62,044 nucleotides of DNA from NCBI GenBank assembly GCA_964432995.1, contig CAYSPU010000001.1, forward strand, positions 2,253-64,296. Direction: 5' to 3'. This document shows, piece by piece, positions 2,196 through 46,300 of the stretch. A program made the translations under genes and the position numbers. Under the pieces are notes generated by a model. The model did not search any database. It was not told the origin of the DNA and worked only from the letters and a program-made list of their open reading frames with translations. Each line of letters starts with the position of its first letter. Position 1 is the stretch's first letter. This DNA comes from an uncultured Verrucomicrobiota bacterium. GTDB taxonomy: Bacteria > Verrucomicrobiota > Verrucomicrobiia > Limisphaerales > JAHDYP01.

Positions 2196-5100
2196 TCAAC
2201 GCCGGTAGGCCCGATAGAATTGCGCCGACGAACCGGCGTCCGTGGACAGGTCGAAGGGGATAACTCCGCCCACGGCCAGGTTCGTGGAGACCGGGGTCCA
2301 CCCCATCAGGTCGGTCGACGATTCGATGACGTAGGTCTGGCCGGATTCGCCGATCAACCGGAGGGTGGGCTGTTCCGCGCTTCCCACCATCTGCAGTCGC
2401 ACGGCGGATTCGGTCAGGCTCGCCAGCGGCAGCGTGAGGTTGTCCAGGTAGGCGGCATCTTCGAAGTCCTTGATGGGAGGATCGGCGAAATCCTTGGCAT
2501 AGCGCCACTCGACGGTGTTGGTGCCGGCCGGTACCACGATGGCGTAGCGCGTCCAATCCACAGCCCCGCTCCAGTTGGTTACCAGGGTCCCGTTCAGCCA
2601 GAACTGCAGGTGGTCCCAGCCTTCCTCGGAGCTGACCCGGAAATCGAACGAGAGCACGCCCGCGTCGAGTATCTCGGTCAATTGGAGCACGCTCTTCTGG
2701 CCATTCCCGATGGCGCCGGATCGGGCGGCGTACTGGCCGGTGGCCGCATTCGTGGACTGGACCCGCCAGGAGGCGTGGCTGCCGGCCGGATTCAGCGCGT
2801 AGCTCAACACGGGACTGAAGGACCCGGTCTCGAAGTCGTCCGTGAAGCTTTCCGGGGCGAAGTTCGCGACCAGGACGTGGTCCTGATCCATCAGCAAGGC
2901 CAGGGGGTTGTCGGTGGACTCGACGCTGCCGGTCCATCGGACGAAGCGGTATCCGGGAAGCGGGGTGGCCGTCAGGGTCACGGTGCTGGCCGCTTCGTAA
3001 TCGGCTTCGGCCGGGGTTGGGGCAACCGATCCCCCGGCGGTGGCGGTGACGCCGAGATGGAAGAGGGTCCGATTGGTGAACGCGTAGAGCAGGCGGTTGG
3101 TGCCGGCGCTGGCCGCATAGCCGTCCAGGGCGATGGAGTAAGTGGTCGCCGCTCGGACGCCGAGGGTGACTTTGCTGTAGCGGTTGCCCGCGATGAAGTC
3201 GTCGTTGGCCGCGACTGTGGTCAGACTGTCGACCCGGGTGCCGGTGTAGACGCCCAGCAGCGTGTCATAGCTCACGTTCGTGGTCAGCACCTGCAGCATG
3301 CCATCGGCCGGTGCGGTCCAACGATACCAGATGGAGTGTCCCCCTTCGTTGCCGGCGTGGTTGGGCTCGCCGGACTCCTTGGTCGCCCGCTGGTTGCTGC
3401 AGGCGATGGAGCCCGAGTCGCCGGTCAGTTCCAGGGCGTTGACGAAGTGATCGTTCGACGGATCCGGGGGCCAGTAATAGACGGTGGTCTTCACTGTGAT
3501 GGACTGGAGTCCGGCGTTATCGACGGCCGTGGCGTAGATGGTATTCTGGCCTTCCTGCAGCAGGAAGTTGCTCGACCACTGATCGCCGTCGAGGTCGGCG
3601 CGTTTGCCGGAGAAATCCTGGTTGATGCGGACGAGGACCTCGGCGATTCCCGAGGCGCCCGGTTGAGGATCGAAAGCCAGTCCGGTGACTTCCACGCGGT
3701 TCGTCGGGGAGATGTAACCGCTTCCGGGCCAAGTGAAGGCGGCGACGGGCGCCAGTGTGTCCGGCACGCCGTTCATTTCGACGCGCAAGCGGACGGTGCC
3801 GGTCTCTTCGTCGTCGGCGCCGCCGACGACGATGCGGTAGGTCTTGGCCGGTTCGGCCGTGAACGTGAGGTAGGCGTGCCGTCGTCCGTTGACGTCGTCC
3901 GCCGCAGCCACTTCTTTGACGTTGGCGATGTTCGTGCCGGTGTAGACCGCCACCACGGTGTCGAACGTGCTCCCCGCCGTATCGATCAAGACGGGAATAT
4001 CGGTCGAAGCGGGCGAGGACCACATCCACCACAGCGTGCTGGCCACGGTCGGATTGTCCGCGTGGAACGGCTCCTGGAACTCGATCGTCGCGTACTGGTT
4101 GTCGGAGAGAATCACCCCGCCTTCGGGCGGCACCTTGTCGGCGTGCGCGAACATGTCGTTCCCCGGGGGACTGACGATGGTGTAGCGAACGACGTTGGTG
4201 CTGGGCGTCTTTGGCGCCGGGGCTGTGACAATGACCGTGAGGATCAACTCGCTGACGTTGGTGGGGGCGACGAGCCGGCCGCTGTAGATGGCGTCTCCGG
4301 CGGCAGCGTCGGGGGCGGTGCCGTTGTTGACGAAGTTGACGGTCCCGTTGGTGCCGTAGGTGCCTTTGACGGTGGCGTTGGTCACGCTGAACATGTCGGT
4401 GACGGTCACGAAGATGTTGTTCGTGGAGCCGGCCAGGAGGACGGCGTTGTTGGGCGGGGTGATCGCCACCTCGAGTTCATTGTCGCCGACGGCGCTGAGA
4501 GCCTTGTAGGCATTGACGCGGCCTCCGGTGACGGTGATGCCGTTGAGGGCGACGGTGGGGACGACGGTCTTGAGGAGCCGCTCGCGGAGTTCGACCAGGG
4601 AGATGTTCGGGTAGTAAGCGCGGATGAGGGCGGCGACGCCGGTGACGTGGGGTGCGGCCATGCTGGTGCCCTGGTAGTATTCATAGGCAGTGGTGGAAGT
4701 GGCCACCGTCGAGTAAATGTCCACCCCCGGCGCCCCGAGATCGACCGTGGTGGCGCCGTAGTTGGAGAAGGAGGCCAACTGATCCGAACGATCGATGGCC
4801 GCCACGCTGATGATGTTGTCCAGATCGTAGTTCGCGGGGTAGGCGGGCTCTTCGTCGTTGTCCATGGCGTCGTTGCCGGCCGAAGCCACGAACAAGACAC
4901 CGGCGTCCCGGGCCGCGGCGATGGCGTCGAACTCCGCCTTCATGTAGGGGCCGCCGCCGAAACTGGCGTTCATCACCGACGCCCCGTTTTCCACCGCGTA
5001 CTCGATACCCTCGACGATGTCGGCGGATGCCAGACCGGAGGCACCGCCCACGCGGCACGCCATGATCCGAACGTTCCAATTGACGCCCACGTGGTCGTAG

Positions 5101-5861
5101 CCGTTGTTGGCAGCGGCGCCGATCGTCCCCGACACGTGGCTGCCGTGCCCGATGCTATCCATGGGATCCCCGCTGTCGTTCACGGCGTTGATGCCGAAGA
5201 CGTCGTCGACGTAGCCGTTGTCATCGTTATCGGCGCCGTCGTTGGGCACTTCGTTGGGGTTCTGCCACATCTGGGCGGAGAGATCGCGGTGGTCATAGCG
5301 CACGCCGCTGTCCACGACGGCCACAATGACGTTGGTGGAACCGACCGTGAGGTCCCAGGCGGTTTCGGCGGAGATATCGACCCCCACCACGCCGCCCTGG
5401 TCGCCGATATTGCGGAGGCCCCAGAGCGAACCATCCAGGAACTTCGCGTCCGTTGGCGTGCGGTGGAACTGCCGGATGTAGTCCGGCTCGGCGTAGAGGA
5501 AGAGGCCGGAGTCGCGCAGTGCGGCCAGCCGGCTCAGAAGGGATTCCTTGAGCTGGTCCTGGCCGGGAACGACCGCCACGGCCAGGGGAAGGCGCTGCCG
5601 GACCGGAACATCGAGAAGCACCAGACCGGAGACGCGCCGGTATTCGCGGGTCACCTCGAGTCCGATCGAACTCAGCAGCTCGCTGACGCCGGGGTCGGTC
5701 GGGCGGCGGTCCGCCTGGAGGCGGGCCAGGATTCGGGTGGGGTGGGCGTCATACCGGCCGATCTGGATCCAGGGGCTCTCTCCCTGGGCGAGCGCCCCGG
5801 GAACGAGCCCGGTCCAACCGGCCAGCAGGACCATCGGTAGCAACGTGCGCAGTCTCAACAT
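2196..5861 (-). CDS. secreted multidomain subtilisin-like serine protease (peptidase S8) with C-terminal accessory domains
   Basis: Start trimmed to the ATG at 5861 (MLRLRTLLPMVLLAGWTGLVPGALAQG signal peptide); the longer ORF would overlap the upstream gene. Asp/His/Ser triad motifs VAVVDSGV, GHGSHVSGT, GTSMAAPHVTG. Followed by two repeat modules (N..AT.E.GEP.H....S.W..W....FDT...VY.G), an InlB-B-repeat-like segment, a MAM/lectin-like segment and the shared C-terminal domain. Confidence 0.85.
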   Translation of the reverse strand: MLRLRTLLPMVLLAGWTGLVPGALAQGESPWIQIGRYDAHPTRILARLQADRRPTDPGVSELLSSIGLEVTREYRRVSGLVLLDVPVRQRLPLAVAVVPGQDQLKESLLSRLAALRDSGLFLYAEPDYIRQFHRTPTDAKFLDGSLWGLRNIGDQGGVVGVDISAETAWDLTVGSTNVIVAVVDSGVRYDHRDLSAQMWQNPNEVPNDGADNDDNGYVDDVFGINAVNDSGDPMDSIGHGSHVSGTIGAAANNGYDHVGVNWNVRIMACRVGGASGLASADIVEGIEYAVENGASVMNASFGGGPYMKAEFDAIAAARDAGVLFVASAGNDAMDNDEEPAYPANYDLDNIISVAAIDRSDQLASFSNYGATTVDLGAPGVDIYSTVATSTTAYEYYQGTSMAAPHVTGVAALIRAYYPNISLVELRERLLKTVVPTVALNGITVTGGRVNAYKALSAVGDNELEVAITPPNNAVLLAGSTNNIFVTVTDMFSVTNATVKGTYGTNGTVNFVNNGTAPDAAAGDAIYSGRLVAPTNVSELILTVIVTAPAPKTPSTNVVRYTIVSPPGNDMFAHADKVPPEGGVILSDNQYATIEFQEPFHADNPTVASTLWWMWSSPASTDIPVLIDTAGSTFDTVVAVYTGTNIANVKEVAAADDVNGRRHAYLTFTAEPAKTYRIVVGGADDEETGTVRLRVEMNGVPDTLAPVAAFTWPGSGYISPTNRVEVTGLAFDPQPGASGIAEVLVRINQDFSGKRADLDGDQWSSNFLLQEGQNTIYATAVDNAGLQSITVKTTVYYWPPDPSNDHFVNALELTGDSGSIACSNQRATKESGEPNHAGNEGGHSIWYRWTAPADGMLQVLTTNVSYDTLLGVYTGTRVDSLTTVAANDDFIAGNRYSKVTLGVRAATTYSIALDGYAASAGTNRLLYAFTNRTLFHLGVTATAGGSVAPTPAEADYEAASTVTLTATPLPGYRFVRWTGSVESTDNPLALLMDQDHVLVANFAPESFTDDFETGSFSPVLSYALNPAGSHASWRVQSTNAATGQYAARSGAIGNGQKSVLQLTEILDAGVLSFDFRVSSEEGWDHLQFWLNGTLVTNWSGAVDWTRYAIVVPAGTNTVEWRYAKDFADPPIKDFEDAAYLDNLTLPLASLTESAVRLQMVGSAEQPTLRLIGESGQTYVIESSTDLMGWTPVSTNLAVGGVIPFDLSTDAGSSAQFYRAYRR

Positions 5862-5944
5862 GGCAACAGCTTTCACCAGCCCGCACTTCCCCTCCGGTGC
5901 CAGCCCCGTGCGGGGAAGCCCGGCTGCCGGGTCGCGCGCGGCCG

Positions 5945-8809
5945 TTACGGGTTGTATCGAACGCGGTAGTAACGGCTGGACACACCCTCGGGCAGGACGT
6001 CTTCCGCCTCGAGCGTTCGCATGAACGCCTCCGGGTTGGCCACCGTGGCAATGACCTCCCATTCGCCAGCGGCCAGATCCGTCGTCATCTCCACCACATA
6101 CGTCGTCTGGGGCGCCGCCATCCACTGGATTGTAGTCTTGGAGGCGGGGGCCGTGCCGACGATCGCCTGGACCTCCGGCTCGGCGAAGGGATAGGGGTCG
6201 TAGCCGTTGGCCAGGCCGTCGCCGTCGGAATCGATCGTGATGCTCTCGCGCAAGCCCTTGTTGATGCGGACGGTTCGGCCGGAGGGCATGAGCACATCCA
6301 CCGAACTCCGCGGACCGGCGAAGTCGCGGACCCAGCGGAACCGACCGCCGAGCGCGCCGTCGAGTTCCTCGACCGGCGTGCTGCTGGGGGCGTAGGCAAA
6401 GTAGATCGTCACGTTGGGATCCACCTCGAACACCGACTCGAGGTTGCCGTTCCGATACGCGTCAAGGACATACCCCTGGAACTCGAGGTAGTCGACGTAG
6501 AGCGCGTAACGGCCCTGGGTGTTCAATCCGCGCAACTGCTGGAATCCGCTCTGGCCCGCGCTCAGCAAAAGGCTCCCGAGGGCGACGTTGTTGGTGAAAC
6601 CGTCGACCGTGGCGCCCCGATCCTCGGCCGCCCACTGATGCTCGATCCAGGCGAAGCGCGGGGCGGTGGACTGCACGGCAGTGCCCAGGAGATCGCCATA
6701 TTGTGGCTTGCGCAACATCACCAAGCCGTCCGCCGGCACCAACATGTTCCCGGCAGCCCAACCACTATCCGCCAAGGAATTGGTCACGCTCAAGATCAGC
6801 GATCCGCTGGTCTGATTCGTGAATTGGTTCAGTTTGAGGTCGTTGACCGCAAGGGTGACATCCGCGCCCGCGCTCAGGCGCCCATGCTGGAACTTGCCCA
6901 ATTTGCCCTCCAGCGCGAACGCTCCGTCGGCCTGGATCCGCCCGGAATTCTCGAAGTAGTCGGAGCGAACGCGCATCGCATTGGCATCGACGGTCCCGCG
7001 GTTGACAAAGGTGGAGTAGGGTTTCGCGCGGTCCTGACCGAAGTTGGCGGTGTTGGCGATGTAGAAGTAGCCTTCGTTGGTGAGGAACCGCAACCGCGGG
7101 GCGTTGGTAACGGCAAAGTGCCCGTCTCCGCCGCTGAAGGTGAGATCGCCCTTGAGGGTGACGGTCTCCGCATCCAACAGGAGAGGACCCACCGCCCGGA
7201 CATTGTCCTCGACGACCACGTTGGTGCTATGGACGGAGAACCCGTGCGTCTGCACCTCCCGGACGATCCCCAACTGCTGGCCATCGACGACGAACGCGTG
7301 GAACTGGAGATCCACGGTGTTGGTGGCGACGTTGGTGATCATCGTGCCCGGGTTGGCCGGGTCTTCCTCGACGTTCGTCGTGGTCGTCCCCGACTGGTTG
7401 GTCCAGGTGGCGCTCCAGAGGAAGACATAGCCGTCGAACCGGGTGATGGTGTCCGGGGTGATGTCGCGGATGAGGAGGTCGCCGCTCGCCGAAGTGAGGT
7501 TGAAGACGAGGTTGGGGGCGTCGATGTAGGTGCCGGAGGTGTCGCTCACGTCGCCGGTGGATTCGATGCGGATCGAGGAATTGCCCCGCAGCCGGGCGTC
7601 GCGGAGGTCGACTGTCCTGCCGGAAATCTCGATCCGCCCGGGGAGGTCGATGACCGATGCCCCCTCCACGCCCGTGGCATCGAGTGCGCCACCTTCCACG
7701 TACGGCGAGTAGGCCGACCAAAAGATGTCCACCGTCTGGTTCGAGTAGGCTTGATTGGAGAATAGATCCGAGGTCAGGGGCGCGTTCCCGAGGTCGCCAT
7801 CCTCGAACACCTGGAGCGGCGACAGTCTGACGCGGTAGTTGCGCGAGCGGTATGTGGACTTTGTGTCCATGCTGTTGAGCAACACGAGGTTCGTGTAGGC
7901 GCCCAGCGCATCGCTGATGTAGAGGGTCTCCGTGCGGATGGTGCCGTCGATGGAGTTGGTCATCGGCATGGTGAACTCGGCGCTGATGATCTGCAGCCCG
8001 GTCTCGGAGCCGAGGGAGCTGAAGCGGATCCGCGAGGCCAGCATGTTCGTGTCATAGCCCACGAAGGCCGCCTGGATGATCTGGTTGGTCTCCGTCAACG
8101 CGTTGGTGTAGGCTCCGACGGTGGTGGTCTGGAACCCGATCCGGCTTGTCCCCCACCCGAAGGGGTCTTCCACACGGTGCGCGGGGGTGATCACGCTGAC
8201 CGAGAACGGATCGTTCTGCACGGTGACGAAGTTCGGGAGGTTGAGGGTGGCGTTGGTCAGGCCGCCCCAGTAATTGTCGTAAATGCCGGTCGCCGGGGTG
8301 AAGTTCGTCTCGGTAACGCTATCCGAATCACCGAAACCTCCGGTGATGGTCGGGCGGACTTCGAGGCGGCTGTGGCGGACGTCGACGCCCTGCCCCTGCA
8401 GTTCGAGGAGGCCCGAGGCGCCGACGCTGAGCAACCCGCGGTTCTGGATGTTGGCCGCATTGACGATGAGGTGACTGGAGACGCTCACCTGAGCGCCGCT
8501 ATCGTTGACGAAACTGGTGGCGGGACGGGGGGCCTGGGTCGACGAGGCGGTCTGGAAGAAGAACCCCGGGTTGCCGCTCATGACGCCGTGGTTGGTGAAA
8601 TGGAGCGTGCTCTGAAAGTCGTAGGGAAGAGCTGTCGACACGTAGAACGTGCCGTAATTGATGAACGCCGTGGCATCGATCTGCGGCGGGGGGTAATCGT
8701 TCATCACGCCCTGGTTGATGTAGACCGGCTGCGTGGCCGCCTGGGCGGCGACGAGGAGGGCGGCGCCGGCCCCCAGACCCGGAAAGACGTTCTTCATAGG
8801 ACTGCTCAT
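5945..8809 (-). CDS. large secreted hypothetical protein, probably beta-helical, with a DSDGDG calcium-type motif and the shared C-terminal domain
   Basis: 954-aa ORF with a signal-like N-terminus (MSSPMKNVFPGLGAGAALLVAAQAATQ). Asn/Gly/Thr-rich repetitive body. C-terminal DSDGDGLANGYDPYPF, then TTYVVEMTTDL..GEWEV...YYRVRYNP. No catalytic motif recognised. Confidence 0.6.
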   Translation of the reverse strand: MSSPMKNVFPGLGAGAALLVAAQAATQPVYINQGVMNDYPPPQIDATAFINYGTFYVSTALPYDFQSTLHFTNHGVMSGNPGFFFQTASSTQAPRPATSFVNDSGAQVSVSSHLIVNAANIQNRGLLSVGASGLLELQGQGVDVRHSRLEVRPTITGGFGDSDSVTETNFTPATGIYDNYWGGLTNATLNLPNFVTVQNDPFSVSVITPAHRVEDPFGWGTSRIGFQTTTVGAYTNALTETNQIIQAAFVGYDTNMLASRIRFSSLGSETGLQIISAEFTMPMTNSIDGTIRTETLYISDALGAYTNLVLLNSMDTKSTYRSRNYRVRLSPLQVFEDGDLGNAPLTSDLFSNQAYSNQTVDIFWSAYSPYVEGGALDATGVEGASVIDLPGRIEISGRTVDLRDARLRGNSSIRIESTGDVSDTSGTYIDAPNLVFNLTSASGDLLIRDITPDTITRFDGYVFLWSATWTNQSGTTTTNVEEDPANPGTMITNVATNTVDLQFHAFVVDGQQLGIVREVQTHGFSVHSTNVVVEDNVRAVGPLLLDAETVTLKGDLTFSGGDGHFAVTNAPRLRFLTNEGYFYIANTANFGQDRAKPYSTFVNRGTVDANAMRVRSDYFENSGRIQADGAFALEGKLGKFQHGRLSAGADVTLAVNDLKLNQFTNQTSGSLILSVTNSLADSGWAAGNMLVPADGLVMLRKPQYGDLLGTAVQSTAPRFAWIEHQWAAEDRGATVDGFTNNVALGSLLLSAGQSGFQQLRGLNTQGRYALYVDYLEFQGYVLDAYRNGNLESVFEVDPNVTIYFAYAPSSTPVEELDGALGGRFRWVRDFAGPRSSVDVLMPSGRTVRINKGLRESITIDSDGDGLANGYDPYPFAEPEVQAIVGTAPASKTTIQWMAAPQTTYVVEMTTDLAAGEWEVIATVANPEAFMRTLEAEDVLPEGVSSRYYRVRYNP

Positions 8810-8849
8810 GAGGCGAAATGGGCTGTTCGCATTGCGGGTGGTACCGGTG

Positions 8850-10343
8850 CTACGGCGTGCCGCCGGTCGTCATACCCGTATCGGTCGTGTTGGTTCCCAC
8901 GCTGGGGGGTACCTCCCAGGCACTGCCCTGCGCCCGCTTGAAGGCGCGCTCCGTGATGTCCCGCATCGTGATACCCGCCGGGTACAGGACCGGCTCGTTG
9001 GTGGTGCCGTCGAACGATCCCCAGAACAGATACCGTGTCGCCGAAGCTTCGTCGAGGTTGTCCAGCGGGAACGTGTTCACGAGGATCTCGTTGACTCCGT
9101 TCAACTCGACGGTGAGGGCCGGGCCGCCGTTGCCTGGCGGGATGTTCCCTGGTCCGTAGTTGCCGGTGATTCCGTTGGTGCCGTCGTTGTTGACCCAGGC
9201 TTGGTTGAGGGTGGTCCCGAAAAACGGCACGGCTTGGTCGCCGTCCCCGCCCTGGAGGTCGCGGACATTGAACAGGATGTCCGGGGCGACGACCGGGCGC
9301 TCGAGGTATTGAGTGATCTCCTGGCGGTTGGAGATCACCGTGTCCGGGAACGTGTTGGTGAAGGCCTCGAAGAGCCCGACCATGGAGTCGTAGTCCGCCC
9401 GGACGAAGGTGACCTTCCCGATGCCGGAGCGGATACCGTTCGCGATGAAGGTGTTGGTCCCCGTGGTAGTCGCGTTGGTTCCCGTGGTGTTGGTGCCGGC
9501 GGGAACACTCCACGGGTTGCCGCCGGTGAGGCTGAGGGTGGCGTTGGCGGGCGGAGTCTCCACGTTCCAGTTGTTGCGGTCGTAGAGGTACTTCAGGCCC
9601 ATCACGTCGTCCCGCGTCAGTCCGGTCCAGAAACCGAGTGCCGAGAACTGAACCCCGGCCACCGGCGCATTCACGGCTCCGTCGTACAGGGCCAGAGGGT
9701 CCACCGGCGCAGTCACGACCCACGAAACGCTGCCATCACGAATGTCCGACACCCGGTCGTAGGTCCACAACACGCCGTTGATGTAGGAACTCGCCTGATA
9801 CCTCTTGGTGGCGGGGACGTACTCGAAGTTGCGCCGGATGATATGGAAGTTCGTGGTCCCGCCGGGGTCCGGCGTCGTCCAGCGGTTGCGCAGCGTGTAG
9901 ACGTAGCGGGTCGGGTCGGTGAGCCCCAATTCCTCGAGGGCGACGGAGAGGACGACCGATTTGAGATCGGCGATCCCCAGCGCAACTGCCTGGTGGTTGA
10001 GGCGCAGGGACGTGAGCGGGTACTTGTCGACGTCGATCGAGGTGACATCGGGAAGGCTGTTCAAGATCTTGAAGGCCTTGTCGATCTCCTGGATGCCGCG
10101 CTGCCCGAAGTAGGTCACGAAGTCGGGGGTGAAGCCGTAGTAGACGGTATCGACATTCCAGCGATACTCCTCGCCGAGGTTCATGGGGCCGCCACCGAGT
10201 TGGGCGTTGTAGTCGGGAGGAAGGTAGCCCAGGCGCGCCGTCATCCAGGTGGTGAGCGGTCCCTGGAGGGTGAAGGCAAAAGCTGAACCGCACCAGCCGG
10301 TCAGGGCCGCCAGCACCAGAAGCCGTTTCAGAAAGCGTAACAT
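8850..10343 (-). CDS. secreted hypothetical protein
   Basis: The ORF-track start at 10352 is GTG. I prefer the ATG at 10343, giving MLRFLKRLLVLAALTGWCGSAFA (a clean signal peptide). GC3-rich coding pattern. No family recognised. Lacks the shared C-terminal domain. Confidence 0.6.
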   Translation of the reverse strand: MLRFLKRLLVLAALTGWCGSAFAFTLQGPLTTWMTARLGYLPPDYNAQLGGGPMNLGEEYRWNVDTVYYGFTPDFVTYFGQRGIQEIDKAFKILNSLPDVTSIDVDKYPLTSLRLNHQAVALGIADLKSVVLSVALEELGLTDPTRYVYTLRNRWTTPDPGGTTNFHIIRRNFEYVPATKRYQASSYINGVLWTYDRVSDIRDGSVSWVVTAPVDPLALYDGAVNAPVAGVQFSALGFWTGLTRDDVMGLKYLYDRNNWNVETPPANATLSLTGGNPWSVPAGTNTTGTNATTTGTNTFIANGIRSGIGKVTFVRADYDSMVGLFEAFTNTFPDTVISNRQEITQYLERPVVAPDILFNVRDLQGGDGDQAVPFFGTTLNQAWVNNDGTNGITGNYGPGNIPPGNGGPALTVELNGVNEILVNTFPLDNLDEASATRYLFWGSFDGTTNEPVLYPAGITMRDITERAFKRAQGSAWEVPPSVGTNTTDTGMTTGGTP

Positions 10344-10352
10344 AGAGATCAC

Positions 10353-12302
10353 CTAGCGAATGCGAATCACTCGATACATGGACACACTCTGCGCACCGTC
10401 CACGGGGATGGAATCGGTGGTTCCGGGAGCGAATCGTTGGGCGCCCACATCGGTCCACGAGCCGAGATTGGAGCTGACCTGGACTTGATAGACGCCGCCG
10501 GGCTGGACATTCCAGTCGAGCCACCATCCCTGGGTGCTGGCCTTCATCTCGAGGCGCATCACGCTGTTGGGGTCGGCGGGGTTGGTGCCGGCCAGGAGTT
10601 CGGCCAGGTTGGAGGCGCCGTCGCCGTCGGTGTCATCATCTTTTCCCGGAGGCTGGGCGGTGAGTTCGGGCCAACTGCTGGCCTGCCAATCGTCAGGGAG
10701 CCCGTCGCGGTTGCGGTCCAGGCCCCAGGTCCGGCCGGTGGCCGCGGTGGACACCTCAGACCGGCTGCCATCGACCAACCGGTAGGCGAGGCGGAAGGTG
10801 TGCTGGCTGGCGGGCATGAAGTTCTCCGCCAGATAGTGGGTCCCCTGCACGTCCACCGGAGTCGTGGCGCCGTCGATATACAGCTCGTACGCCGCGATGT
10901 CATAGCCGGTCACCTCGGCCCAGGTCACACTGAGTTCGGTTTCGCTGACGGCGAAGGCAAACGGCGCGGCCGGCGCGGCCAGCGGCACCGCCGGGGCGAG
11001 GGCGACGCGCTGGGCGAAGAGGTCGAAGCTCCCCTCGCCGCCCGTGAAACTGGTCCAGGTCACGACGCACGCGTCCTGGGCATCCGAGGCGACCGCGGGG
11101 TGCATCTGTTGCATAGCGGTGGTCGTGTTGACGAACACTTCGCCACCCGCCGGCCCGTTGGCTTCGACCGCCCGCCCGCAGACGCCTTCATACGATCCGT
11201 CCTGGCCAACCGTGGTCCAGACGGCGAAGAACCGGCCGCCCACCCGGGCGAGGCGCGGCGCGTACTGATCTCCACGGAGGCGGGTGTTGATGGTGAACTC
11301 GGCCGAAAGGGGCGTGCCATCGGCCTGGAGCAACCGCCCGTAGACGTCCCAACGATCGGTGGACTGAGCGCCCACGGGCAGTTGGGCTTTGCGTCCGCTG
11401 TAGGCAACCAGCATGCTGCCATCCTCGGCCACGCTGATCGCCGGGTTCGCCGCCAATACGGCGCTGGAACTGACCTGGAACTCATCGCCCTCGGGCTCAC
11501 CGGTGGCGGAGAAGCAGCGCGCCAGGATGGCGACGTCGTGGAGCGGGACCCCCGCATCGGAACCGGAGTAGCCACCGGTCGGGGTGGTATCAAAAACGGT
11601 CTGGCCGAGAGGGCTCTCGCAGACCCAGGCGACGAGGAACCGGCCCCCGGGCAACCCGGCGACGGTGGCAGAGCGCTGGTTGAACTCGGTGTATTGGTTG
11701 ACGGCGAACTCGGCGCCGACCTTCTGGCCCGTCGCGCTGAAGCGCTGTCCGTAGACGCCGAGCATACTGCCGTCCTGGCCGAAGCTGTTCCAGACTACCA
11801 CGGCGCCGCCGTCCTGGAGGGTGGCGACGGCCGGTTCGATTTGAAAGCCACCGGCGTAGGTGTTCACCTGGAGGTCGGCCGACCGGAAGGTGCCGTCCGG
11901 TTTCACGAACCGCGCGTAGATCTTCTGCTTGCCATTGGCGCCACCCTGCCAGACGAAGGCCGCGCCGCCATCCTGCAGGACCGCCACCTGGGGCTTCTCC
12001 TGGTCGGCGGTTCCCACCGAATTGACGCGGAAGACGCCGAGGACGCCGCTGAGTCCGGCGTCGACGCGGCGGGCGCTGATGCCGGTGCCGTCGCCGTCGG
12101 TGGCGTTATCGTGCCAGACGACGTAGCCGCCGCCGGCGCCGAGGCTGACGTGCGGGAAGACCTGGTCGCCTCGGAGGGGACTGGTCATCCGGAACTCGGC
12201 TCCTTGGCGGGCGAAGGTGCCGGCGCCGAGGCTGCCGCCGGCCAGCAGAAGCGCACTGCAGCAGAGGGGGACCCACCTAACTCGACTCAAAAGCAACGTC
12301 AT
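10353..12302 (-). CDS. secreted repeat protein: seven propeller-like repeats, an FN3-like domain, a DTDGDG motif and the shared C-terminal domain
   Basis: Start trimmed to the ATG at 12302 (MTLLLSRVRWVPLCCSALLLAGGSLGAG). Seven units of pattern Q..P.VA...DGG..VVW....DGS..GVYG.RF...G. Then an FN3-like segment (ELSVTWAEVTGYDIAAYELYIDG), DDDTDGDGASNLAELLAGTNPADPNS, and tail ...GVYQVQVSSNLGSWTDV...MYRVIRIR. Confidence 0.65.
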   Translation of the reverse strand: MTLLLSRVRWVPLCCSALLLAGGSLGAGTFARQGAEFRMTSPLRGDQVFPHVSLGAGGGYVVWHDNATDGDGTGISARRVDAGLSGVLGVFRVNSVGTADQEKPQVAVLQDGGAAFVWQGGANGKQKIYARFVKPDGTFRSADLQVNTYAGGFQIEPAVATLQDGGAVVVWNSFGQDGSMLGVYGQRFSATGQKVGAEFAVNQYTEFNQRSATVAGLPGGRFLVAWVCESPLGQTVFDTTPTGGYSGSDAGVPLHDVAILARCFSATGEPEGDEFQVSSSAVLAANPAISVAEDGSMLVAYSGRKAQLPVGAQSTDRWDVYGRLLQADGTPLSAEFTINTRLRGDQYAPRLARVGGRFFAVWTTVGQDGSYEGVCGRAVEANGPAGGEVFVNTTTAMQQMHPAVASDAQDACVVTWTSFTGGEGSFDLFAQRVALAPAVPLAAPAAPFAFAVSETELSVTWAEVTGYDIAAYELYIDGATTPVDVQGTHYLAENFMPASQHTFRLAYRLVDGSRSEVSTAATGRTWGLDRNRDGLPDDWQASSWPELTAQPPGKDDDTDGDGASNLAELLAGTNPADPNSVMRLEMKASTQGWWLDWNVQPGGVYQVQVSSNLGSWTDVGAQRFAPGTTDSIPVDGAQSVSMYRVIRIR

Positions 12303-12450: not shown

Positions 12451-15204
<2,754 letters not shown>

Positions 15205-15249
15205 GGTTCGCTCAGGTTTGGGTTGGCACACCATAGAAATTCGCATTGC

Positions 15250-16068: not shown

Positions 16069-16084
16069 TGAAGCGAATGCGGCG

Positions 16085-17185: not shown

Positions 17186-17204
17186 AGGAGAGGGTGTGAA
17201 AAGG

Positions 17205-38759: not shown

Positions 38760-41700
38760 CTACCACGGTCGCTTGAGCTGGAAGAATATCGGAGCGTCGG
38801 CCACGCGGTTTGTGACCACACAATCCTCGCCGAGATAACCCACGGCGTTGGTGGTGTTCGACCAGTCGATTGGCGGTTCGAGGGTGGGCGCGCTCTGCAG
38901 CACGAACCCGGGGGCCACCGCTGACCAGTAGATCCTCACCTCGTCGCCGTCGGCGGCCATCCGGAGAGACGGCACCGGGACAACGACCGCCGTGAAGGTC
39001 CGCTCGTCGCTGCCGCCCGGAGTGCCGTTGTCGGTCACGCGGACGGTGACGAGGTTGGTGCTGGGGATCTGCTCGGGCGCGGGCGACCAGGTGAGAGTCC
39101 CGAGGGCGGGGTCGATGGTGAATCCAGTCGGCGGGGCGACGAGGCTGAAGGTCAGGAGGTTGGCCGGCAGGTCGGGATCGGTGGCGACGTTGGTGACGGT
39201 CAGCCCTTCGCCTTCGAGGATAACCTGTTCCGGAAGAGGCTCGAGGGCGGGCGGAAGGTTGACCTCGCGCACAGCGACGGTGAACTCGCGGGTGTCGCTC
39301 AGCGTCGGGGAGCCGTTGTCGGTGCTGCGGACGCGGATGGTCACGTTGGTGGGTCCCTGGGCTTCGGTTGGGGTCCAGGTGACGACGCCGGAAGTGGGGT
39401 TGATCTGGGCGTTGGGTGGGGCGGAGACGAGGCTGAAGGTGAGGGTGTTGGTGGGCAGGTCGGTGTCCAGGACGGAGTTGGTGACCGAGAGGGTGGCGAG
39501 TTCATCGAGCGTCTGAGCGCCGGGAACGGTGAGTGAGGGCGGGCTGTTCACCTCCGACACGGTGATGGTCATCTGGTTCGTGATGCTCAGCAGTGGCTGG
39601 CCGTTGTCACTGACCTTCACGGTGAGGAGGTGCGCGCCTGGACCCTGGCTCTCGGTGGGCGTCCAGGAGACGATTCCGGAGTGGGGACCCACCGTGGCAC
39701 CGGCTGGTCCCGAGAGCAGGGAGAAGCTGAGCGTGTTCGTGGGGAAGTCGGGGTCCGTGGCTACGCTGGGAAGCTGGATTGAGGTCAGTTCGCTGTTTGT
39801 CAGAGCAGCCGGAGCGGTCCACATCGGCGAGCGGTTCACTTCGTTCACCGTGACGGTGAAGGACTGCGAGTTGCTCAGCGGCGGCGTCCCGTTGTCGGTG
39901 GCCTGGATGGTGACCGTGTTGGTGCCGGGGCCTTGGGCCTCGGTGGGGGTCCAACTGAGGAGTCCGGTCGCGGTGTCGATGTGAGCGCCGGACGGCGCTT
40001 GGGTCAGGGCGTACGTGACGGTTTGGTCGAGGTCGGGATGTTCGACGGTCGGCGCCACGTTCAGGGTTGTCTCTTCATCCAGAGTGTGGTCGTCGATGGC
40101 GGTCAAGACAGGTTGCGCATTCAGCACGGTCAGCGTGACCGCAGTTGCGCTGTAGAGGGTGTCGTTGGTTTGCCAGGCGGCGACCGTCGGGAGGTCGAAG
40201 CCGGTGAAGGCTCCGGCACGGTCCGGATAGGTCAAGACCGTGAAGGCATCACCGGCGCGCGGGCGGAAGGAGGTGCTGAGGGTGGCGGCGAGGGTGCCGG
40301 TCAAGGGGGCCGTTCCAGTGAACTGGACTCGGCCGAAGTCGGCAAGGCTGTTGAGGCCGAGGTTGAGCCGTCCACCGGTCTGGGTGTAGGGGCAGGCAAA
40401 GAGGATCAAGCCGGTCTGGACGTCGACAGCTCCTGTGTTCTCGAAGGGGATGGTGCTGACGGAGGTGACGCCGCTGCCACCGGTTTTGCGGAAGAGCCCG
40501 GCGTTATGAACAGCCCCGCCGACGCCGCTGTAGTCGTAGATCGCAGAGTCACTCAGATTCTCCCAGAGGCCGCCAGGGAGGTTGTTCAGCGTGCCACCAC
40601 TGATGGCGATCCGCCCGCTGTCGGACCAAATCACGTGTCCGATGTTGTCCAGTGTGCCGGCCAAACCTTTGTCGACGGTGCCGGTCAGGAGCAAAGTGCT
40701 ATTCGTGGAGACGGTCATGGTGGCGGCACCTCCGATCCACCCCATGGTCCAGGTGAGGGTGCCGTCGATCGTGTTCGTGCCCGTCACGACTGTGTTAGCT
40801 CCCCCGAGTTGGAGATTGTCGGTGTGGATCGCGCCGTCCAGGGTGACGACGCCTTCGGCGGCCAAGAGGTTGATCCCGGTTCCGGTGAAGGAACTGCCGT
40901 CGCGGAAGACGCTCCCGGCCGCGTAGAGAACGACGCCGGTCTGGACATTGAGCATGCCCGGGTTGTCCAGGGGCACGGCTAGGTAAGTTGTACCGGTACC
41001 GCTGGTTTTCGTGATGAGCCCGGCGTTGCGGTTGGTTGACAGCGCGCCGGACACCAGCAGCGCGGCGTCGGTCTGCAGCTCAAACACGCCTCCGGCCTGA
41101 TTGTCGATCACGCCGGCGTCTTGCCAGATCTGGCCTGTGCCCGACCAGAGGATGCGCCCCTGGTTGTGGATGACACCGGCCAGGCCTTTGTTGTCTGCCC
41201 CAGCAACGTTCAGGACACCGTTCGTGGCGAGGGTCAAGTCCGCGGCGCCACCGATCCATCCCATGGTCCAGGTCAAGACGCCATCGATGGTGCTGGTTCC
41301 CGCGATGACCGTGTTGCCCCCGGCGAGTTGGAGGTTGTCGGTGTGGATCGCGCCGTCCAGGGTGACGACGCCTTCGGCGGCCAGCACGTTGAGTCCCGCC
41401 CCAGTGAAAGAGCTGCCGTCATGGAAGACGCTCCCGGCTGCATAGAGGGCGGCGCCGGTTTGGACCTCGAGCGTTCCCAAGTTGTCGAGCGGCACGGCCA
41501 GGTAGATGGTACCGGTGCCGCTGGTTTTGGTGATGAGCCCGGCGTTGCGGTTGGTCGACAGCGCGCCGGACACCAGCAGCGCGGCGTCGGTCTGCAGCTC
41601 GAACACGCCTCCGGCCTGGTTGTCGATCACGCCGGCGTTCTGCCAGATCTGGCCTGTGCCCGACCAGATGAGCCGCCCCTGGTTGCGCAGCGTTCCGGCC

Positions 41701-43223
41701 AGGCCTTTGTTGTCCACGCCGGCCACGCGCAAGACGCCGTTGGTGGCAACGGTCAAGTCCGCGGCGCCACCGATCCATCCCATGGTCCAGGTCAAGACGC
41801 CATCGATGGTGGAGACGCCTGTGATGACCGTGTTGCCTCCCCCGAGCTGGAGGTTGTCGGTGTGGATCGCGCCTTCGAGGGTGACGACGCCCTCGGCCGC
41901 CAAGAGGTTGAGTCCCGCGCCGGTGAAGGAGCTGCCGTCACGGAAGGCACTACCCGCCGCGTAGAGGATGGCGCCGGTTTGGACGTCGAGCGTGCCCGAG
42001 TTGTCGAGGGGGACAGCCAGAGTGGTGAGACCAGCACCGGCGGTCTTGCGGAGGAGACCGGCGTTGCGGTTGGTCGACAACGCGCCGTTGACCAGCATGG
42101 CGGCGTCCGTCTGCACTTCAAACACACCTCCGGCCTGGTTGTCGATCACGCCGGCGTCTTGCCAGATCTGGCCCGAGCCCGACCAGATGAGACGCCCCTG
42201 GTTGCGCAGCGCTCCGGCCACGCCTTTGTTGTCCCCGCCAGCCACGCTCAGCACACCGTTGGTGGCGACGGTCACGTCCGCCGCACCACCGATCCATCCC
42301 CTGGTCCAGGTGAGGGTGCCGTCGATGGTGTTCGTCCCCGCCACGAATGTGTTGCCTCCCCCCAGCTCGAGATTGTCCGTGTGAATCGCGCCCTCGAGGG
42401 TTACCGGCCCAGCGGCGGCTAACAGGTTGAGCCCCGCGCCAGTGAAAGAGCTGCCGTCACGGAAGACGCTCCCGGCCGCGTAGAGGATGGCACCGGTCTG
42501 GACCTCGAGCGTGCCTGAGCTGTCGAGGGGCACGCCCAGAGCGGTGGCGCCAGCTCCGGCGGTCTTGCGGATGAGGCCAGCGTTCACGATCTGAGGGCTG
42601 CCGCTGGCGAGCACGACAGTCTGATCGTTCTGGATCTCGATGGTGCCGGTGGGCAGGTTCTCGAAGCGGGCGTCTCCGGCGAGGAAGAGGTTGTTCGCGC
42701 CCGACCAAGTGACGCGGCCACTGTTTGCCAGCGAGCCAACGAGGTAGCGGTCGGCTGAACCGGTCAACTCGCACGCGCCCGAGGTGGCGACGGTGATCGT
42801 GCCATAGGCAGCGCCCCCGCTGCAGCGGAGCAATCCATTCACGGTGAGGGTGCCTGCGGCGTCCAGCGTGCCGCCACTCATCGCCAGCACGCCTCCGGTT
42901 TGGACGGTGCTGGCGGTGGTGAGGGTGAGCGTGGGTGCGAAGTTGACCAGTGTCTGTTCCCCGGTGGTTCCTCCCAGGGTGAGGCTGGCGATCGTGGCGT
43001 TGACGTCCAGGACGACGGTGTAAGTGCCGTCCATGGTGATGTGGACGTCGTCGGCTGCGGTGGGGACCGTGCCGCCACTCCAGTTGGTGGCGGTATTCCA
43101 ACTGCCGCCCCCCGGGTTGGTCCAGAAGACGGTTGCCGCGAAGGTTGGCGCGGCAAACGAGCAGCCGAATCCGGTCAGGAGCGCGAGGAGGTACTGCCGC
43201 AAGCCGAGGTGGGGAGTGCCCAT
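38760..43223 (-). CDS. giant secreted adhesin-like protein: beta-helical repeats, 4 x 173-aa tandem repeats, five Ig/cadherin-like domains and the shared C-terminal domain
   Basis: Signal peptide MGTPHLGLRQYLLALLTGFGCSFAAPTFA. Autotransporter-associated-beta-strand-like N-terminus (W.NP.GGSWNTATNWSGG). Repeats begin NAGL(I/L)(R/T)KT.G.G at aa 214, 387, 560 and 733. Five units of pattern D.D.P.NTL(T/S)FSL...P.GA.I....G...WTPTE.QGP......V...DNG.P.LS. Confidence 0.8.
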   Translation of the reverse strand: MGTPHLGLRQYLLALLTGFGCSFAAPTFAATVFWTNPGGGSWNTATNWSGGTVPTAADDVHITMDGTYTVVLDVNATIASLTLGGTTGEQTLVNFAPTLTLTTASTVQTGGVLAMSGGTLDAAGTLTVNGLLRCSGGAAYGTITVATSGACELTGSADRYLVGSLANSGRVTWSGANNLFLAGDARFENLPTGTIEIQNDQTVVLASGSPQIVNAGLIRKTAGAGATALGVPLDSSGTLEVQTGAILYAAGSVFRDGSSFTGAGLNLLAAAGPVTLEGAIHTDNLELGGGNTFVAGTNTIDGTLTWTRGWIGGAADVTVATNGVLSVAGGDNKGVAGALRNQGRLIWSGSGQIWQDAGVIDNQAGGVFEVQTDAAMLVNGALSTNRNAGLLRKTAGAGLTTLAVPLDNSGTLDVQTGAILYAAGSAFRDGSSFTGAGLNLLAAEGVVTLEGAIHTDNLQLGGGNTVITGVSTIDGVLTWTMGWIGGAADLTVATNGVLRVAGVDNKGLAGTLRNQGRLIWSGTGQIWQNAGVIDNQAGGVFELQTDAALLVSGALSTNRNAGLITKTSGTGTIYLAVPLDNLGTLEVQTGAALYAAGSVFHDGSSFTGAGLNVLAAEGVVTLDGAIHTDNLQLAGGNTVIAGTSTIDGVLTWTMGWIGGAADLTLATNGVLNVAGADNKGLAGVIHNQGRILWSGTGQIWQDAGVIDNQAGGVFELQTDAALLVSGALSTNRNAGLITKTSGTGTTYLAVPLDNPGMLNVQTGVVLYAAGSVFRDGSSFTGTGINLLAAEGVVTLDGAIHTDNLQLGGANTVVTGTNTIDGTLTWTMGWIGGAATMTVSTNSTLLLTGTVDKGLAGTLDNIGHVIWSDSGRIAISGGTLNNLPGGLWENLSDSAIYDYSGVGGAVHNAGLFRKTGGSGVTSVSTIPFENTGAVDVQTGLILFACPYTQTGGRLNLGLNSLADFGRVQFTGTAPLTGTLAATLSTSFRPRAGDAFTVLTYPDRAGAFTGFDLPTVAAWQTNDTLYSATAVTLTVLNAQPVLTAIDDHTLDEETTLNVAPTVEHPDLDQTVTYALTQAPSGAHIDTATGLLSWTPTEAQGPGTNTVTIQATDNGTPPLSNSQSFTVTVNEVNRSPMWTAPAALTNSELTSIQLPSVATDPDFPTNTLSFSLLSGPAGATVGPHSGIVSWTPTESQGPGAHLLTVKVSDNGQPLLSITNQMTITVSEVNSPPSLTVPGAQTLDELATLSVTNSVLDTDLPTNTLTFSLVSAPPNAQINPTSGVVTWTPTEAQGPTNVTIRVRSTDNGSPTLSDTREFTVAVREVNLPPALEPLPEQVILEGEGLTVTNVATDPDLPANLLTFSLVAPPTGFTIDPALGTLTWSPAPEQIPSTNLVTVRVTDNGTPGGSDERTFTAVVVPVPSLRMAADGDEVRIYWSAVAPGFVLQSAPTLEPPIDWSNTTNAVGYLGEDCVVTNRVADAPIFFQLKRPW
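40508..42584. repeat. intragenic tandem repeat, four copies of about 519 nt
   Basis: A 173-aa period is seen in the protein. Plus-strand shadow ORFs at 40582, 41101, about 41620 and about 42136 repeat the same peptide (SITPASCQIWPVPDQ...) at 519-nt spacing. Confidence 0.85.
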
Positions 43224-43359: not shown

Positions 43360-46300
43360 TTATGGCCCCACCAGGCGGTAGAAGAGCGTTTGGTGTTGGC
43401 CGAAGTCCACGGCTTCGGTCAGGTCCAGGAGACCGAGTTCGTCGGCGTAGGCGTGACGCAGGAGTTGCCAGTGCTCGAGGTCCGTGGAGATTTCGAGGCG
43501 GTAGAGTTGGCCGGGTTCGCCCGTCAGGCGGAGTTGGAGGACACCGTCCGCGCGCAACTGCGCATTGGCTCTGGGCGCGACGTCTGGAGGGCGCAGCGCC
43601 GCCGGCAGCAGGGTAACCGCGGTTTCGGCCGGTGCGCTTTCGAGGGCGCCATCGCTGACGACCAACTGGAACGTCAGCGTGGCCGGGGCGCCGACCGGTC
43701 GGGCGAGGAAGCAGGGAGTAGGGCTCGCAGGATTGAGGAGTTGCACGACGGGACCGGTGGTTTGCTTCCAGGCGAACAGCAGCGACTGCCGGTCGCCATC
43801 GGTGGAGCCGGAGCCGTTGAGATAGACGTTGCGGGGTGCCCGCAGCCGGATGCGCTGGCTCTCGCCGGCGTGGGCGACTGGCGCCCGGTTGACCGGGCTG
43901 GGCGGATTGGTGCCGAAGTAGACGGGTGCCCAGGAAGCGGGGGAAGTGGAGGTTGCGGTGGGCGGCCATTCAGCAGAGTCGTGGACCAGCATGATGCGGG
44001 CGGCATGGTTCCAGCCGTTGAGGAGGCTTTGGGTGACACGGAACTCGGCGTTCCAGGTGTTGCTGCTCCGGTGGACGATCGCGCTGAAGCCGGCGCTGGG
44101 AGTCGTGGTCACCGCCATGCCGCTGAGGCCGGTGCCCACTTCCTGGGAGGGGATGCCGTCTTCGTCCACAAAGAACCCGCGGTCCTTGATGGAGGGCGTG
44201 CTGCTACCGTTGCCGTCCACTTCCACGCGGAGACCAACCTGGCGGCTGGCACGGACGCCTCCGTATTTCAGGTTGGAGAAGGAGACAAACAGGTTGCTGC
44301 CAGAGTGGAGCAGGCGAACCGGGATGGTGTCTTGGGCGGCCCAAACCACGCGGACGAGTGGTGCGTTGGTGTAACCGTTGTCGTTGCTGAGGCCGTCCAG
44401 GGTGGGGGCGGAGCCATCGGGGATGGTGATTGGCAGGATGTCGAACTGACGTGTGACACGGGCGGTCTGGCCGGCGGGGTCGGTCGCGTCGAGGGTGGCG
44501 GTGTAGGCACCTGGGGAGAGGGATTGCAGGGGCAGAGAGAGTGCTGCGACGAGGCCGGTTTGGGTCGAGGGCGACGGACCCGTCAGGGAGAGGGCGAGGG
44601 TATTGCTGGAGGTCCCCGTTTCGGGATCGAAGGCGTGGCCTCGCAAGACGCGCGTTTCGCCGAAGGGCAACCGCTGCCGTTCCTTGACCCCACTGAGTGT
44701 GGGACGGGGCGGCTGATTGGACATGGCGAACGGCTCGCTGGTGGCCACGGCGGTCTGCACTCCATCGGTGGCGATGATGCGCACCCGGGTCTCGGAGCTG
44801 CCTGGAAGACCGCGAGCGTCGATGGTGTCCTCGAGTCCGCGATAGTTCTTCCGGATGGTGAACCATCGAGAGCCAGCGCCGTATTGAACGAGGAAGCGCA
44901 GTGGATCGCCGTCCGGATCTTCCGCCTTCCACCGCACGTAGACGGACTGGGCTGCCTGGTCCACGTTCACGGTCGAGATGGTGAGGATGGGAGGGTGCGG
45001 GCTGACGAAGCGTTCGATCCAGACCTGGTTGTTCCGGAGGAGTTGGAGAGTCCGAACGTCCGGGGCGAGGTCGACCCATTGGGAAAAGGTGTCGAAGTGG
45101 AGCCGGCGCACTTCTTCGGAGTGGGCCTCGCTGACGGCGATGGGGATTTCGCTCAGGAGCGTGCCCCGGGCGTCGAGTTGTCGAAGAAGGGCGGCGGACG
45201 CGTCTTTGGCGAGGGAGGCGGCGAGTTCGCGTGCTTGGGCTAACCGGTCAGCGGGCAGCAGGTCTTCGGGGAGGGCGTAGAGAGGGCGGAAGAAGCCGGA
45301 CGGCTCGCTGCGTCCAAGTCGGCCCTGGAGGAGCAGCACGTTGCCGGTGCCGCCTCCAGGCTGGGGATCATCGCCGGAACCGGCTCCCACGGGCGCGCGT
45401 GCGGTGCGTTCGAGCAGCGCATTCCAGTAGACGTGCGAGGGCCAGAGGGAACTGGCGTAGGACATGATGTCGGCTGCGCTCTCCGGAGCAATGATCCCGG
45501 ACTCGAGGTAGTCCCAACCGACGTATGCATCGGGGCTGACGTCATCCGGAACGCCAAGAGAGCAGGTGTAGAGCACCAGGTCGAAGTTCTGTTGGTCGGC
45601 GGGGAAGTTGCCGCAGTTGACGTGTTGGCGTCCGTAGCCGTGGCCGAGTTCGTGGGCGAGGATGGCCCCGCCTCCGTGCGAGATGCTCTTGTAGCTGTCT
45701 GGATCCATGTGCACGATCGCCATGGCCTGGTTGCGGCGGGTGACACCGGCGAAGTTCGGTGTGCTTTCGTGGAGCATCCCCACGTAGTGCTGGTCGCCCC
45801 AATCGCCACAGGGGAACCACGAGAAGTCCTCGAGGTCATCCAGGGCGCGCGTCTGTTCCGCGTCGTCGGTGTCGGGATCCTCGCTGCCGATGGCGTACGG
45901 GTCTTCGGGATCGCCGAAGGGGGCGGGGAATTCGCTGATCATCCAGTCGGCAACGGGCATGAGGGACCGGGCGCGTTCGGCCAGGTCGGGGACGTCCTCG
46001 AAACCGCACGTGGGGCCGGGGGTGATGAGCGGGATGAAGGTGAGGCCGGGGCGGCCCTTGCCGATCACGGTGGCGGGGTTGCGCAGCCAGACGACATTAT
46101 TGGCGAGCGGCTCCACGCCGGTTTCAGCGACATCGAGGTCTTCGTTGACCACCATCTTTAGCTGCAGCCTTGCTGGCACCAGGGGATCGCCGTAGTCCAT
46201 CCATGTGTCCGGCAATTCGAACAGATAGGAGAAAGAGGTATTCAGGATGCGCCGTTGGGGCAACGACTTGAATGATTCCAGCGTCGGCCGGTTGACGGGT

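Follow-up and report, generated by a model that had tools for sequence, protein, structure and literature searches.

What is the common ending of five large exported proteins in a 62-kb stretch of an uncultured Verrucomicrobiota genome: a sorting signal, an anchor or a mere structural part? The stretch, called the window here, comprises 62,044 nucleotides (contig CAYSPU010000001.1, positions 2,253 to 64,296) of a genome with 66% G+C. A sequence-only reading had proposed that five otherwise unrelated secreted proteins end in one domain of 60–70 residues, a candidate sorting or anchoring tag resembling the C-terminal domain (CTD) of the Bacteroidota type IX secretion system (T9SS). We find that five signal-peptide-like proteins of 649–1487 residues, all encoded on the minus strand, do end in a common module of about 65–75 residues, a stop codon closing each long open reading frame (ORF). 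Taken as a whole, the evidence leads us to favour, with modest confidence, an uncatalogued module derived from discoidin that sits at the end of Sec-exported surface or extracellular proteins and serves, without catalytic activity, in binding or retention.

Five copies of one beta-sandwich module

A hidden Markov model (HMM) of the five tails, run against the 732 six-frame ORFs of the window, returned five sites only, all of them ORF-terminal, with the next best candidate at an E-value of 0.48. Leaving each tail out of the model in turn, four of the five were regained (E 5e-12 for the tail of the ORF at 2196, 1e-3 for 5945, 3e-4 for 10353 and 3.5e-4 for 43360), and a profile made from 251 foreign instances alone found the same four at E-values of 1e-15 to 7e-12. 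The fifth tail, at 38760, was missed by the leave-one-out model and reached E 0.17 with the foreign profile. It matches individual family members at E-values down to 1.2e-4, while 30 shuffled versions all gave 0.026 or more; as its predicted model is also of the same six-strand kind, we regard it as a divergent member. The peptides and intervals quoted in the sequence-only reading are correct, each covering the last 60–75 codons or so before the stop, and the module is indeed terminal; the unit is, however, slightly longer than proposed, at about 65–75 residues, and starts one strand before some of the peptides given there. It has the signature L-x-W-x-G-x-PG-x-x-Y-x-V-Q-x-S-x-D-L-x-x-W ... 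R-F-Y-R.

Structure prediction with AlphaFold2, based on a 46-sequence alignment for copy 1, gave a compact domain of six beta-strands with a predicted local distance difference test score (pLDDT) of 88.3 and a predicted template modelling score (pTM) of 0.71. The model of the 38760 tail (pLDDT 82.4) has six strands in the same order. The predicted architecture is an immunoglobulin (Ig)-like 3+3 sandwich without a G strand. Foldseek comparison of both models with the PDB yielded nothing at E ≤ 1e-3, and no T9SS CTD among the top 50; the nearest structures to both are generic Ig/fn3-type sandwiches with template modelling (TM) scores of about 0.6, the top match being common to the two. Since the models are confident and the tandem period of about 70–80 residues in relatives (see below) leaves no space for other parts, the five tails are copies of one real, autonomously folding module.

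The catalogues consulted were Pfam (2025 copy) and NCBIfam (r20). At E ≤ 10, the tails alone matched nothing in either except, below threshold, F5_F8_type_C_2 in the case of the 10353 tail (E 1.3e-3); in particular, none of the five matched the T9SS CTD models PF18962, TIGR04183 and TIGR04131. No T9SS genes were seen among the window genes. The earlier statement that the tails are not PEP-CTERM, LPXTG or autotransporter elements is borne out: models for PEP-CTERM/exosortase, LPXTG/sortase and GlyGly-CTERM-type signals gave no match, the tails end as a beta-strand (...FYRxxx) without a hydrophobic helix, and the full-length carriers have no Pfam match to a barrel of the type V secretion system, which would measure about 250–300 residues against the roughly 70 of the sandwich. 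Literature searches returned no description of the module. A word-indexed protein search with the five-tail alignment gave no matches, and with the 46-sequence alignment only short unnamed fragments without a Pfam domain. The module thus represents a domain family without a name in Pfam or NCBIfam, and it takes its place among the beta-sandwich modules that accompany bacterial extracellular proteins as accessory domains.

Kinship and distribution of the family

The module is related to part of the discoidin domain. Local hhalign comparison of 235 module instances with 91 full discoidin units gave a probability of 96.8% (E 3e-10), a value that is inflated because the module profile was used to pick the discoidin set. 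The overlap puts module columns 17–75 on discoidin columns 125–180 of 197, in the C-terminal half, and the two have the signature W-E...Y-x-IQVS-x-D...W...RYVR in common. An independent search of the PDB sequences with the module profile found the same segment in the CBM32 chitosan-binding modules 2RV9, 4ZXE and 4ZY9 (E 4.4e-5). With Pfam F5_F8_type_C_2, module-only proteins score 19.7–28.5 bits against a gathering threshold of 27.8, over profile positions 35–85 or so of 91; these matches are sub-threshold, as the 28.4–28.5 bits of P0013 and P0015 are sums over several copies and no single stretch passes. The module was therefore probably derived from the C-terminal half of a discoidin domain, as far as sequence comparison can tell. 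It is not a discoidin domain itself: the tails show neither a Pfam gathering score over about 130–150 residues nor an eight-strand jelly-roll with ligand-binding loops. Half the discoidin size and the predicted Ig-like 3+3 fold make it a distinct family rather than a member of CBM32. A match to a known carbohydrate-binding domain devoid of positional preference would have spoken against a terminal tag; what emerges is kinship with half of such a domain, which counts in part against the tag, together with a strong positional bias.

Homology with fn3, raised by the presence of fn3 domains among the near neighbours of the 38760 tail, was rejected after an hhalign control in which fn3 sequences from non-module regions gave a probability of 1.5% (E 0.035), reversed alignments giving about 1%. 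Pfam fn3 (PF00041) has no match on the tails, six strands are predicted against the seven of fn3, and the likeness is one of general fold only.

An exhaustive HMMER scan covering 1.84 billion representative proteins returned 3,753 with E ≤ 1e-3, of which 161 reach E ≤ 1e-10. Copy statistics were taken from the best 150 matches, ranked by summed score, so multi-copy proteins are over-represented among them. In a Pfam scan of 50 carriers, 19 turned out to be strong multi-copy discoidin (F5_F8_type_C) proteins, which means that the profile also matched half of each discoidin domain; matches immediately preceded by the N-terminal half of a discoidin domain were set apart from true modules. By this test, 22 of 149 proteins are discoidin-only, with a terminal match in just one, and 127 proteins contain 380 true modules of about 70 residues, mostly two to four each and up to ten, at a tandem period of about 70–80 residues. 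Carriers are of the extracellular type and include proteases, repeat proteins resembling adhesins and proteins rich in Ig, cadherin and fn3 domains.

Some 72% of the 380 copies are internal; the last copy lies no more than 10 residues from the C-terminus in 105 of the 127 carriers, and in at least 109 after inspection (83–86%). On direct reading, at least four apparently non-terminal arrays prove to end in additional divergent copies missed by the HMM, and other non-terminal carriers end in fn3 or look truncated; in ten of the remaining carriers, read by eye and not scanned with HMMs, no sorting-signal-like C-terminus was seen. Where a copy is terminal, the protein ends four to five residues past FYR. 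Internal and terminal copies conform to one consensus, and terminal copies resemble other terminal copies in 39 cases and internal copies of other proteins in 38, with no separate classes. True internal copies exist, since P0030 has four alternating module-fn3 units. The picture is simpler where stop codons can be read in genomic DNA; there, every copy is single and located 0–1 residues before the stop (5/5 copies in the window and 9/9 in fetched loci); the 12 distinct genes concerned are the five of the window and seven in loci L001 and L005–L009. The terminal placement that the sequence-only reading had predicted thus holds for the last element of most carriers and for 12/12 genomic genes, and fails for most individual copies, which occur in arrays of 2–10 or, as in P0030, in alternation with fn3, a frequency of internal copies that also counts in part against the tag. 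Likewise, the single, always C-terminal copy typical of T9SS CTDs is seen in the window and the fetched loci and not across the family.

Some proteins, P0030 among them, consist of little else than modules. P0005 and P0013 combine fn3 with three near-identical copies, pointing to very recent tandem duplication, and P0002 has eight copies. Residues 592–634 of P0002 give a partial match to Pfam DUF7298 (38.3 bits, gathering threshold 27, profile positions 37–78 of 167), so DUF7298 may, judging from this overlap, contain or overlap a module copy. Small module proteins of 124–143 residues also occur in the fetched loci. One of them, P0183 (141 residues), has a clear signal peptide and little besides the module; in the other three the N-terminus is ambiguous or looks truncated. 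The gene for P0183 directly follows two Peptidase_S74 genes (tail-fibre/endosialidase chaperone type; L010, 643–3613), and a Collar-domain gene is nearby. These neighbours suggest a possible phage-tail-like or fibre context.

Carrier proteins and the secretin neighbourhood

The coordinates of the modules, of the proteins that carry them and of the adjacent secretin cluster are collected in the table below. Hydrophobic, signal-peptide-like N-termini are present in all five carriers, as judged by a crude hydropathy test that is non-specific (a cytoplasmic KAS scored positive), so that the calls rest partly on inspection. With this proviso, the cargo is diverse and of the Sec-exported type, as the sequence-only reading had it. 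The calcium-type DxDGDG motif that it placed ahead of the module in two proteins is found in those encoded at 10353 and 5945, where DxDxDG motifs of the bacterial TSP3 type precede the module.

Table. Module copies, carrier proteins and pilus-like genes of the window
Feature	Coordinates	Strand	Description	Evidence
Module copy 1	2199..2420	(-)	C-terminal ~74 aa, ...TLRLIGESGQTYVIESSTDLMGWTPV...AQFYRAYRR; stop at 2196-2198	foreign-only HMM E 1e-15
Module copy 2	5948..6184	(-)	longer C'-E loop, ...TIQWMAAPQTTYVVEMTTDLAAGEWEVI...SRYYRVRYNP	foreign-only HMM E 7e-12
Module copy 3	10356..10577	(-)	...WLDWNVQPGGVYQVQVSSNLGSWTDV...SMYRVIRIR	foreign-only HMM E 4e-14
Module copy 4	38763..38999	(-)	divergent 'proline-insert' variant, ...VRIYWSAVAPGFVLQSAPTLEPPIDWSN...PIFFQLKRPW	foreign-only HMM E 0.17
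Module copy 5	43363..43593	(-)	...LQLRLTGEPGQLYRLEISTDLEHWQLL...TLFYRLVGP	foreign-only HMM E 9e-15
Carrier 1	2196..5861	(-)	1221 aa; signal-like N-terminus, start MLRLRTLL; Peptidase_S8, Flg_new_2, jelly-roll-like region, module	
Carrier 2	5945..8797	(-)	950 aa; DSDGDG at aa 856, then module; identical to P0035	
Carrier 3	10353..12302	(-)	649 aa; N-terminal part rich in repeats, TSP3_bac motif at aa 555, module	
Carrier 4	38760..43223	(-)	1487 aa; signal-like N-terminus, ~190-aa repeats, four He_PIG/cadherin-like Ig domains, module	
Carrier 5	43360..47667	(-)	1435 aa; signal-like N-terminus, zincin motif at aa 672, K319L-like PKD, module; identical to P0018	
Amuc_1098-like TPR-secretin	12451-15246	(-)		NCBIfam best match 2.5e-97, 326.8 bits (cut-off 750); Pfam Secretin
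Unassigned gene	15250-16068	(-)	between Amuc_1100-like gene and secretin	
Amuc_1100-like gene	16085-17185	(-)		NCBIfam best match 5.2e-19, 68.8 bits (cut-off 180)
Amuc_1101-like PilM	17205-19241	(-)		NCBIfam best match 3.9e-142, 475.2 bits (cut-off 650); Pfam PilM_2

The subtilase and Flg_new_2 assignments of carrier 1 rest on Pfam matches of 1.4e-55 (S8) and 1.4e-12. Between Flg_new_2 and the module, about 140 unassigned residues (approximately 1000–1145, FTDDFETGSF…AAYLDNLTLP) have a jelly-roll- or lectin-like look, and a weak choice-of-anchor X match lies elsewhere in the protein. Carrier 2 is without any Pfam or NCBIfam family. The gene for carrier 3 is directly downstream of the secretin gene, and its orthologs, P0114 and a protein of locus L001 (50% identical), end in ...YYRVIRIR and ...LYRVIRLR. 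In carrier 4, which is identical to P0153, the Ig-like domains were recognised by Pfam as He_PIG/RibLong/Big_9; residues 30–950 or thereabouts form about five near-identical repeats of some 190 residues (…GAILYAAGSVFRDGSSFTGAGLNLLAAEGVVTLEGAIHTDNL…), probably beta-helical and adhesin-like, to which no Pfam repeat family matches. Carrier 5 contains a zincin-type motif, HELGHGYGRQH, and its first 1200 or so residues match no Pfam or NCBIfam peptidase family; going by the motif, it may represent an undescribed metalloprotease family.

A pilus-like cluster (12451–19241, minus strand) immediately precedes carriers 3, 2 and 1 on the upstream side. Its Amuc-type matches are clear homologs and best matches, all under the equivalog cut-offs. 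The PilM-like, Amuc_1100-like and TPR-secretin genes come in the same order as in the Amuc_1098–Amuc_1102 cluster of Akkermansia. In that bacterium the secretin Amuc_1098/PilQ is the most abundant protein of the outer membrane (PMC4960237). The cluster is followed, with short gaps, by four large co-oriented genes, three of them module-bearing and the fourth (8850–10352, minus strand) encoding a protein of 500 residues with a signal-like N-terminus and no Pfam or NCBIfam match. The block is kept in a metagenome-assembled genome (MAG) of the Limisphaerales, where the 500-residue protein has a 43% identical counterpart in the same place. Elsewhere in the window, a beta-CASP/MBL ribonuclease is encoded at 60479–61882 (minus strand), with best NCBIfam scores of 320 bits for type VII CRISPR Cas14 (cut-off 800) and 293 bits for archaeal aCPSF1 (cut-off 580), each falling far short of the cut-off.

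The locus of the Limisphaerales MAG, L001, was the single related locus found by genome scan; its pilus-like cluster is at 3059–9742. Synteny with the window spans the locus from the epimerase on one flank to CoaE on the other, with amino-acid identities of 32–80%. The orthologs of carriers 1, 2 and 3 are 47%, 36% and 50% identical, and 3/3 end in the module. Orthologous tails are 35–61% identical and paralogous ones 16–32%, so the tails are inherited vertically along with the proteins that bear them. As the synteny extends to housekeeping genes, the block alone is no proof of a functional link with the secretin and may merely reflect relatedness. Carriers 4 and 5 of the window are about 25 kb from the secretin, six other carrier loci (L005–L010) have no secretin within 10 kb, and the three metagenome loci seeded by secretin are distant (27–29% identity) and contain no module copies. 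Of the connection to the secretin locus drawn in the sequence-only reading there remains that three carriers adjoin the secretin and do so in L001 as well; the linkage is confined to this one syntenic block, its conservation having been tested in one other genome.

What the terminal module may do

Variable-copy terminal arrays, diverse cargo, kinship to a binding fold and the stand-alone small versions lead us to infer that the module binds a ligand or retains its cargo, and that it is not cleaved off. The cargo would be exported by the Sec pathway and lose its N-terminal signal peptide, whereupon the module or array at the other end would bind a glycan, an envelope component or the substrate surface and so hold or target the cargo; in arrays, multivalency would increase the avidity. 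The milder, anchoring half of the idea put forward in the sequence-only reading is accordingly still plausible. Several observations weigh against a binding or retention end-module. Only the structural core, and not the ligand-binding loops, is common to the module and discoidin domains, so that carbohydrate binding cannot be transferred from one to the other; and the discoidin set of the profile comparison had been selected with the module profile itself. In Foldseek the predicted fold is nearer to Ig/fn3 sandwiches (TM about 0.6) than to CBM32 (4LKS, TM 0.40). The best-150 sample favours multi-copy proteins, whereas in the genomic DNA, an unbiased sample, 12/12 genes are single-copy and terminal, and the precision of four to five residues with which terminal copies end is stricter than usual for carbohydrate-binding modules and as expected of a terminal recognition signal.

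That the tails are alike by chance, or through the composition of a G+C-rich genome, might be argued from their pairwise identities of only 20–34%; we consider this refuted by leave-one-out and foreign-profile E-values down to 1e-15, thousands of relatives, confident models and tails kept in orthologs. A passive structural element without a specific partner, be it a stalk, spacer, cap or aid to folding and stability, placed at the end only through tandem duplication at the gene end, deserves more attention, even if we think it unlikely. Its conserved residues look like a hydrophobic core or a tyrosine-corner-type signature rather than a surface site, fn3, Ig, cadherin and PKD modules are found with it in free combination, and the near-identical adjoining copies of P0005 and P0013 testify to recent tandem duplication. 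Against this, a spacer would be expected between domains and not as the last element in over 80% of proteins, single terminal copies are kept in orthologs at 35–61% identity, and proteins composed of a signal peptide and a module suggest an independent function of the module.

A sorting or export signal at the C-terminus, of the T9SS CTD type, the terminal copy being recognised, perhaps by an exposed edge strand, by an outer-membrane translocon or attachment machine such as the adjacent Amuc_1098-type secretin and directing secretion or covalent surface attachment, appears improbable to us. The extreme C-terminal position in 83–86% of carriers and in all genomic genes, the diverse cargo with predicted signal peptides, the high frequency of five genes in 62 kb, a size and beta-sandwich nature like those of T9SS CTDs, and three carriers directly downstream of a secretin cluster, kept so in a second genome, would all fit. 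But copies in tandem or inside the protein are frequent and cannot be told from terminal ones, while the sorting domains known to us are single and terminal; no T9SS CTD, PEP-CTERM or other sorting model matches at E ≤ 10 in Pfam or NCBIfam; there is no secretin near two of the five window carriers or near those of L005–L010; the conserved block is flanked by syntenic housekeeping genes, so its linkage may be mere relatedness; and small proteins, clearly so in P0183, are little besides signal peptide and module. We also know of no secretin, in type II secretion systems or type IV pili, that reads C-terminal domains. On these grounds, with tandem and internal copies, no CTD match and no general linkage to machinery, the CTD-like sorting tag of the sequence-only reading finds no support, although the strict terminal placement leaves it some small probability. 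A variant, in our view just as doubtful, is that the terminal copy serves an undescribed pathway of surface display in the Planctomycetes-Verrucomicrobia-Chlamydiae (PVC) group as its handle for recognition or attachment, tethering or exporting giant proteases and adhesins. A partner in the outer membrane or of pilus-like kind, perhaps the Amuc_1098-type secretin, might then complete the edge that lacks a G strand with a strand of its own, and internal copies would be duplicated spacers derived from the handle.

Whatever its role, the family is widespread, occurring in thousands of protein clusters, and its near-always-last placement on large Verrucomicrobia-like surface proteins is unusual. 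Cataloguing it would improve the annotation of many giant proteins now called hypothetical and help to predict the surface proteome in PVC lineages that have been little studied. Should the module turn out to be a handle for retention or sorting, it would bear on the ways in which the diderm bacteria of this group expose or set free their very large exoproteins; the finding would be surprising only if the terminal copy proved to be a sorting or attachment handle, and routine in the likelier case of one more beta-sandwich accessory module.

Among known systems, the T9SS CTD (Por_Secre_tail, PF18962/TIGR04183) of Bacteroidota is, like the module, a small terminal beta-sandwich on many diverse signal-peptide proteins per genome; the module has no sequence match to it and is often tandem and internal, and PVC phyla are, to our knowledge, without a T9SS. 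Ig-like and fn3 accessory domains, the structural neighbours at TM scores of about 0.6, co-occur and alternate with the module, but fn3 is mostly internal and the module strongly C-terminal. The repeats by which Gram-positive proteins are anchored (GW, SLH, CWB2 and choline-binding repeats) likewise occur as one to many terminal tandem copies on diverse cargo, with near-identical neighbours. This is a likeness of logic only: their folds and sequences are unrelated, the hosts of the module are diderm, and binding of an envelope polymer by the module would be an analogy. CBM32 modules, such as DD1 and DD2 of the Paenibacillus fukuinensis glucanase/chitosanase (PDB 2RV9, 4ZXE), have the strand signature in common with the module, which at about 70 residues against 140–150 aligns to their C-terminal part alone and is predicted to form a sandwich rather than a jelly-roll. 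CBM32 modules also form C-terminal tandem arrays on extracellular enzymes, and we propose that the arrays of the module may follow the same logic.

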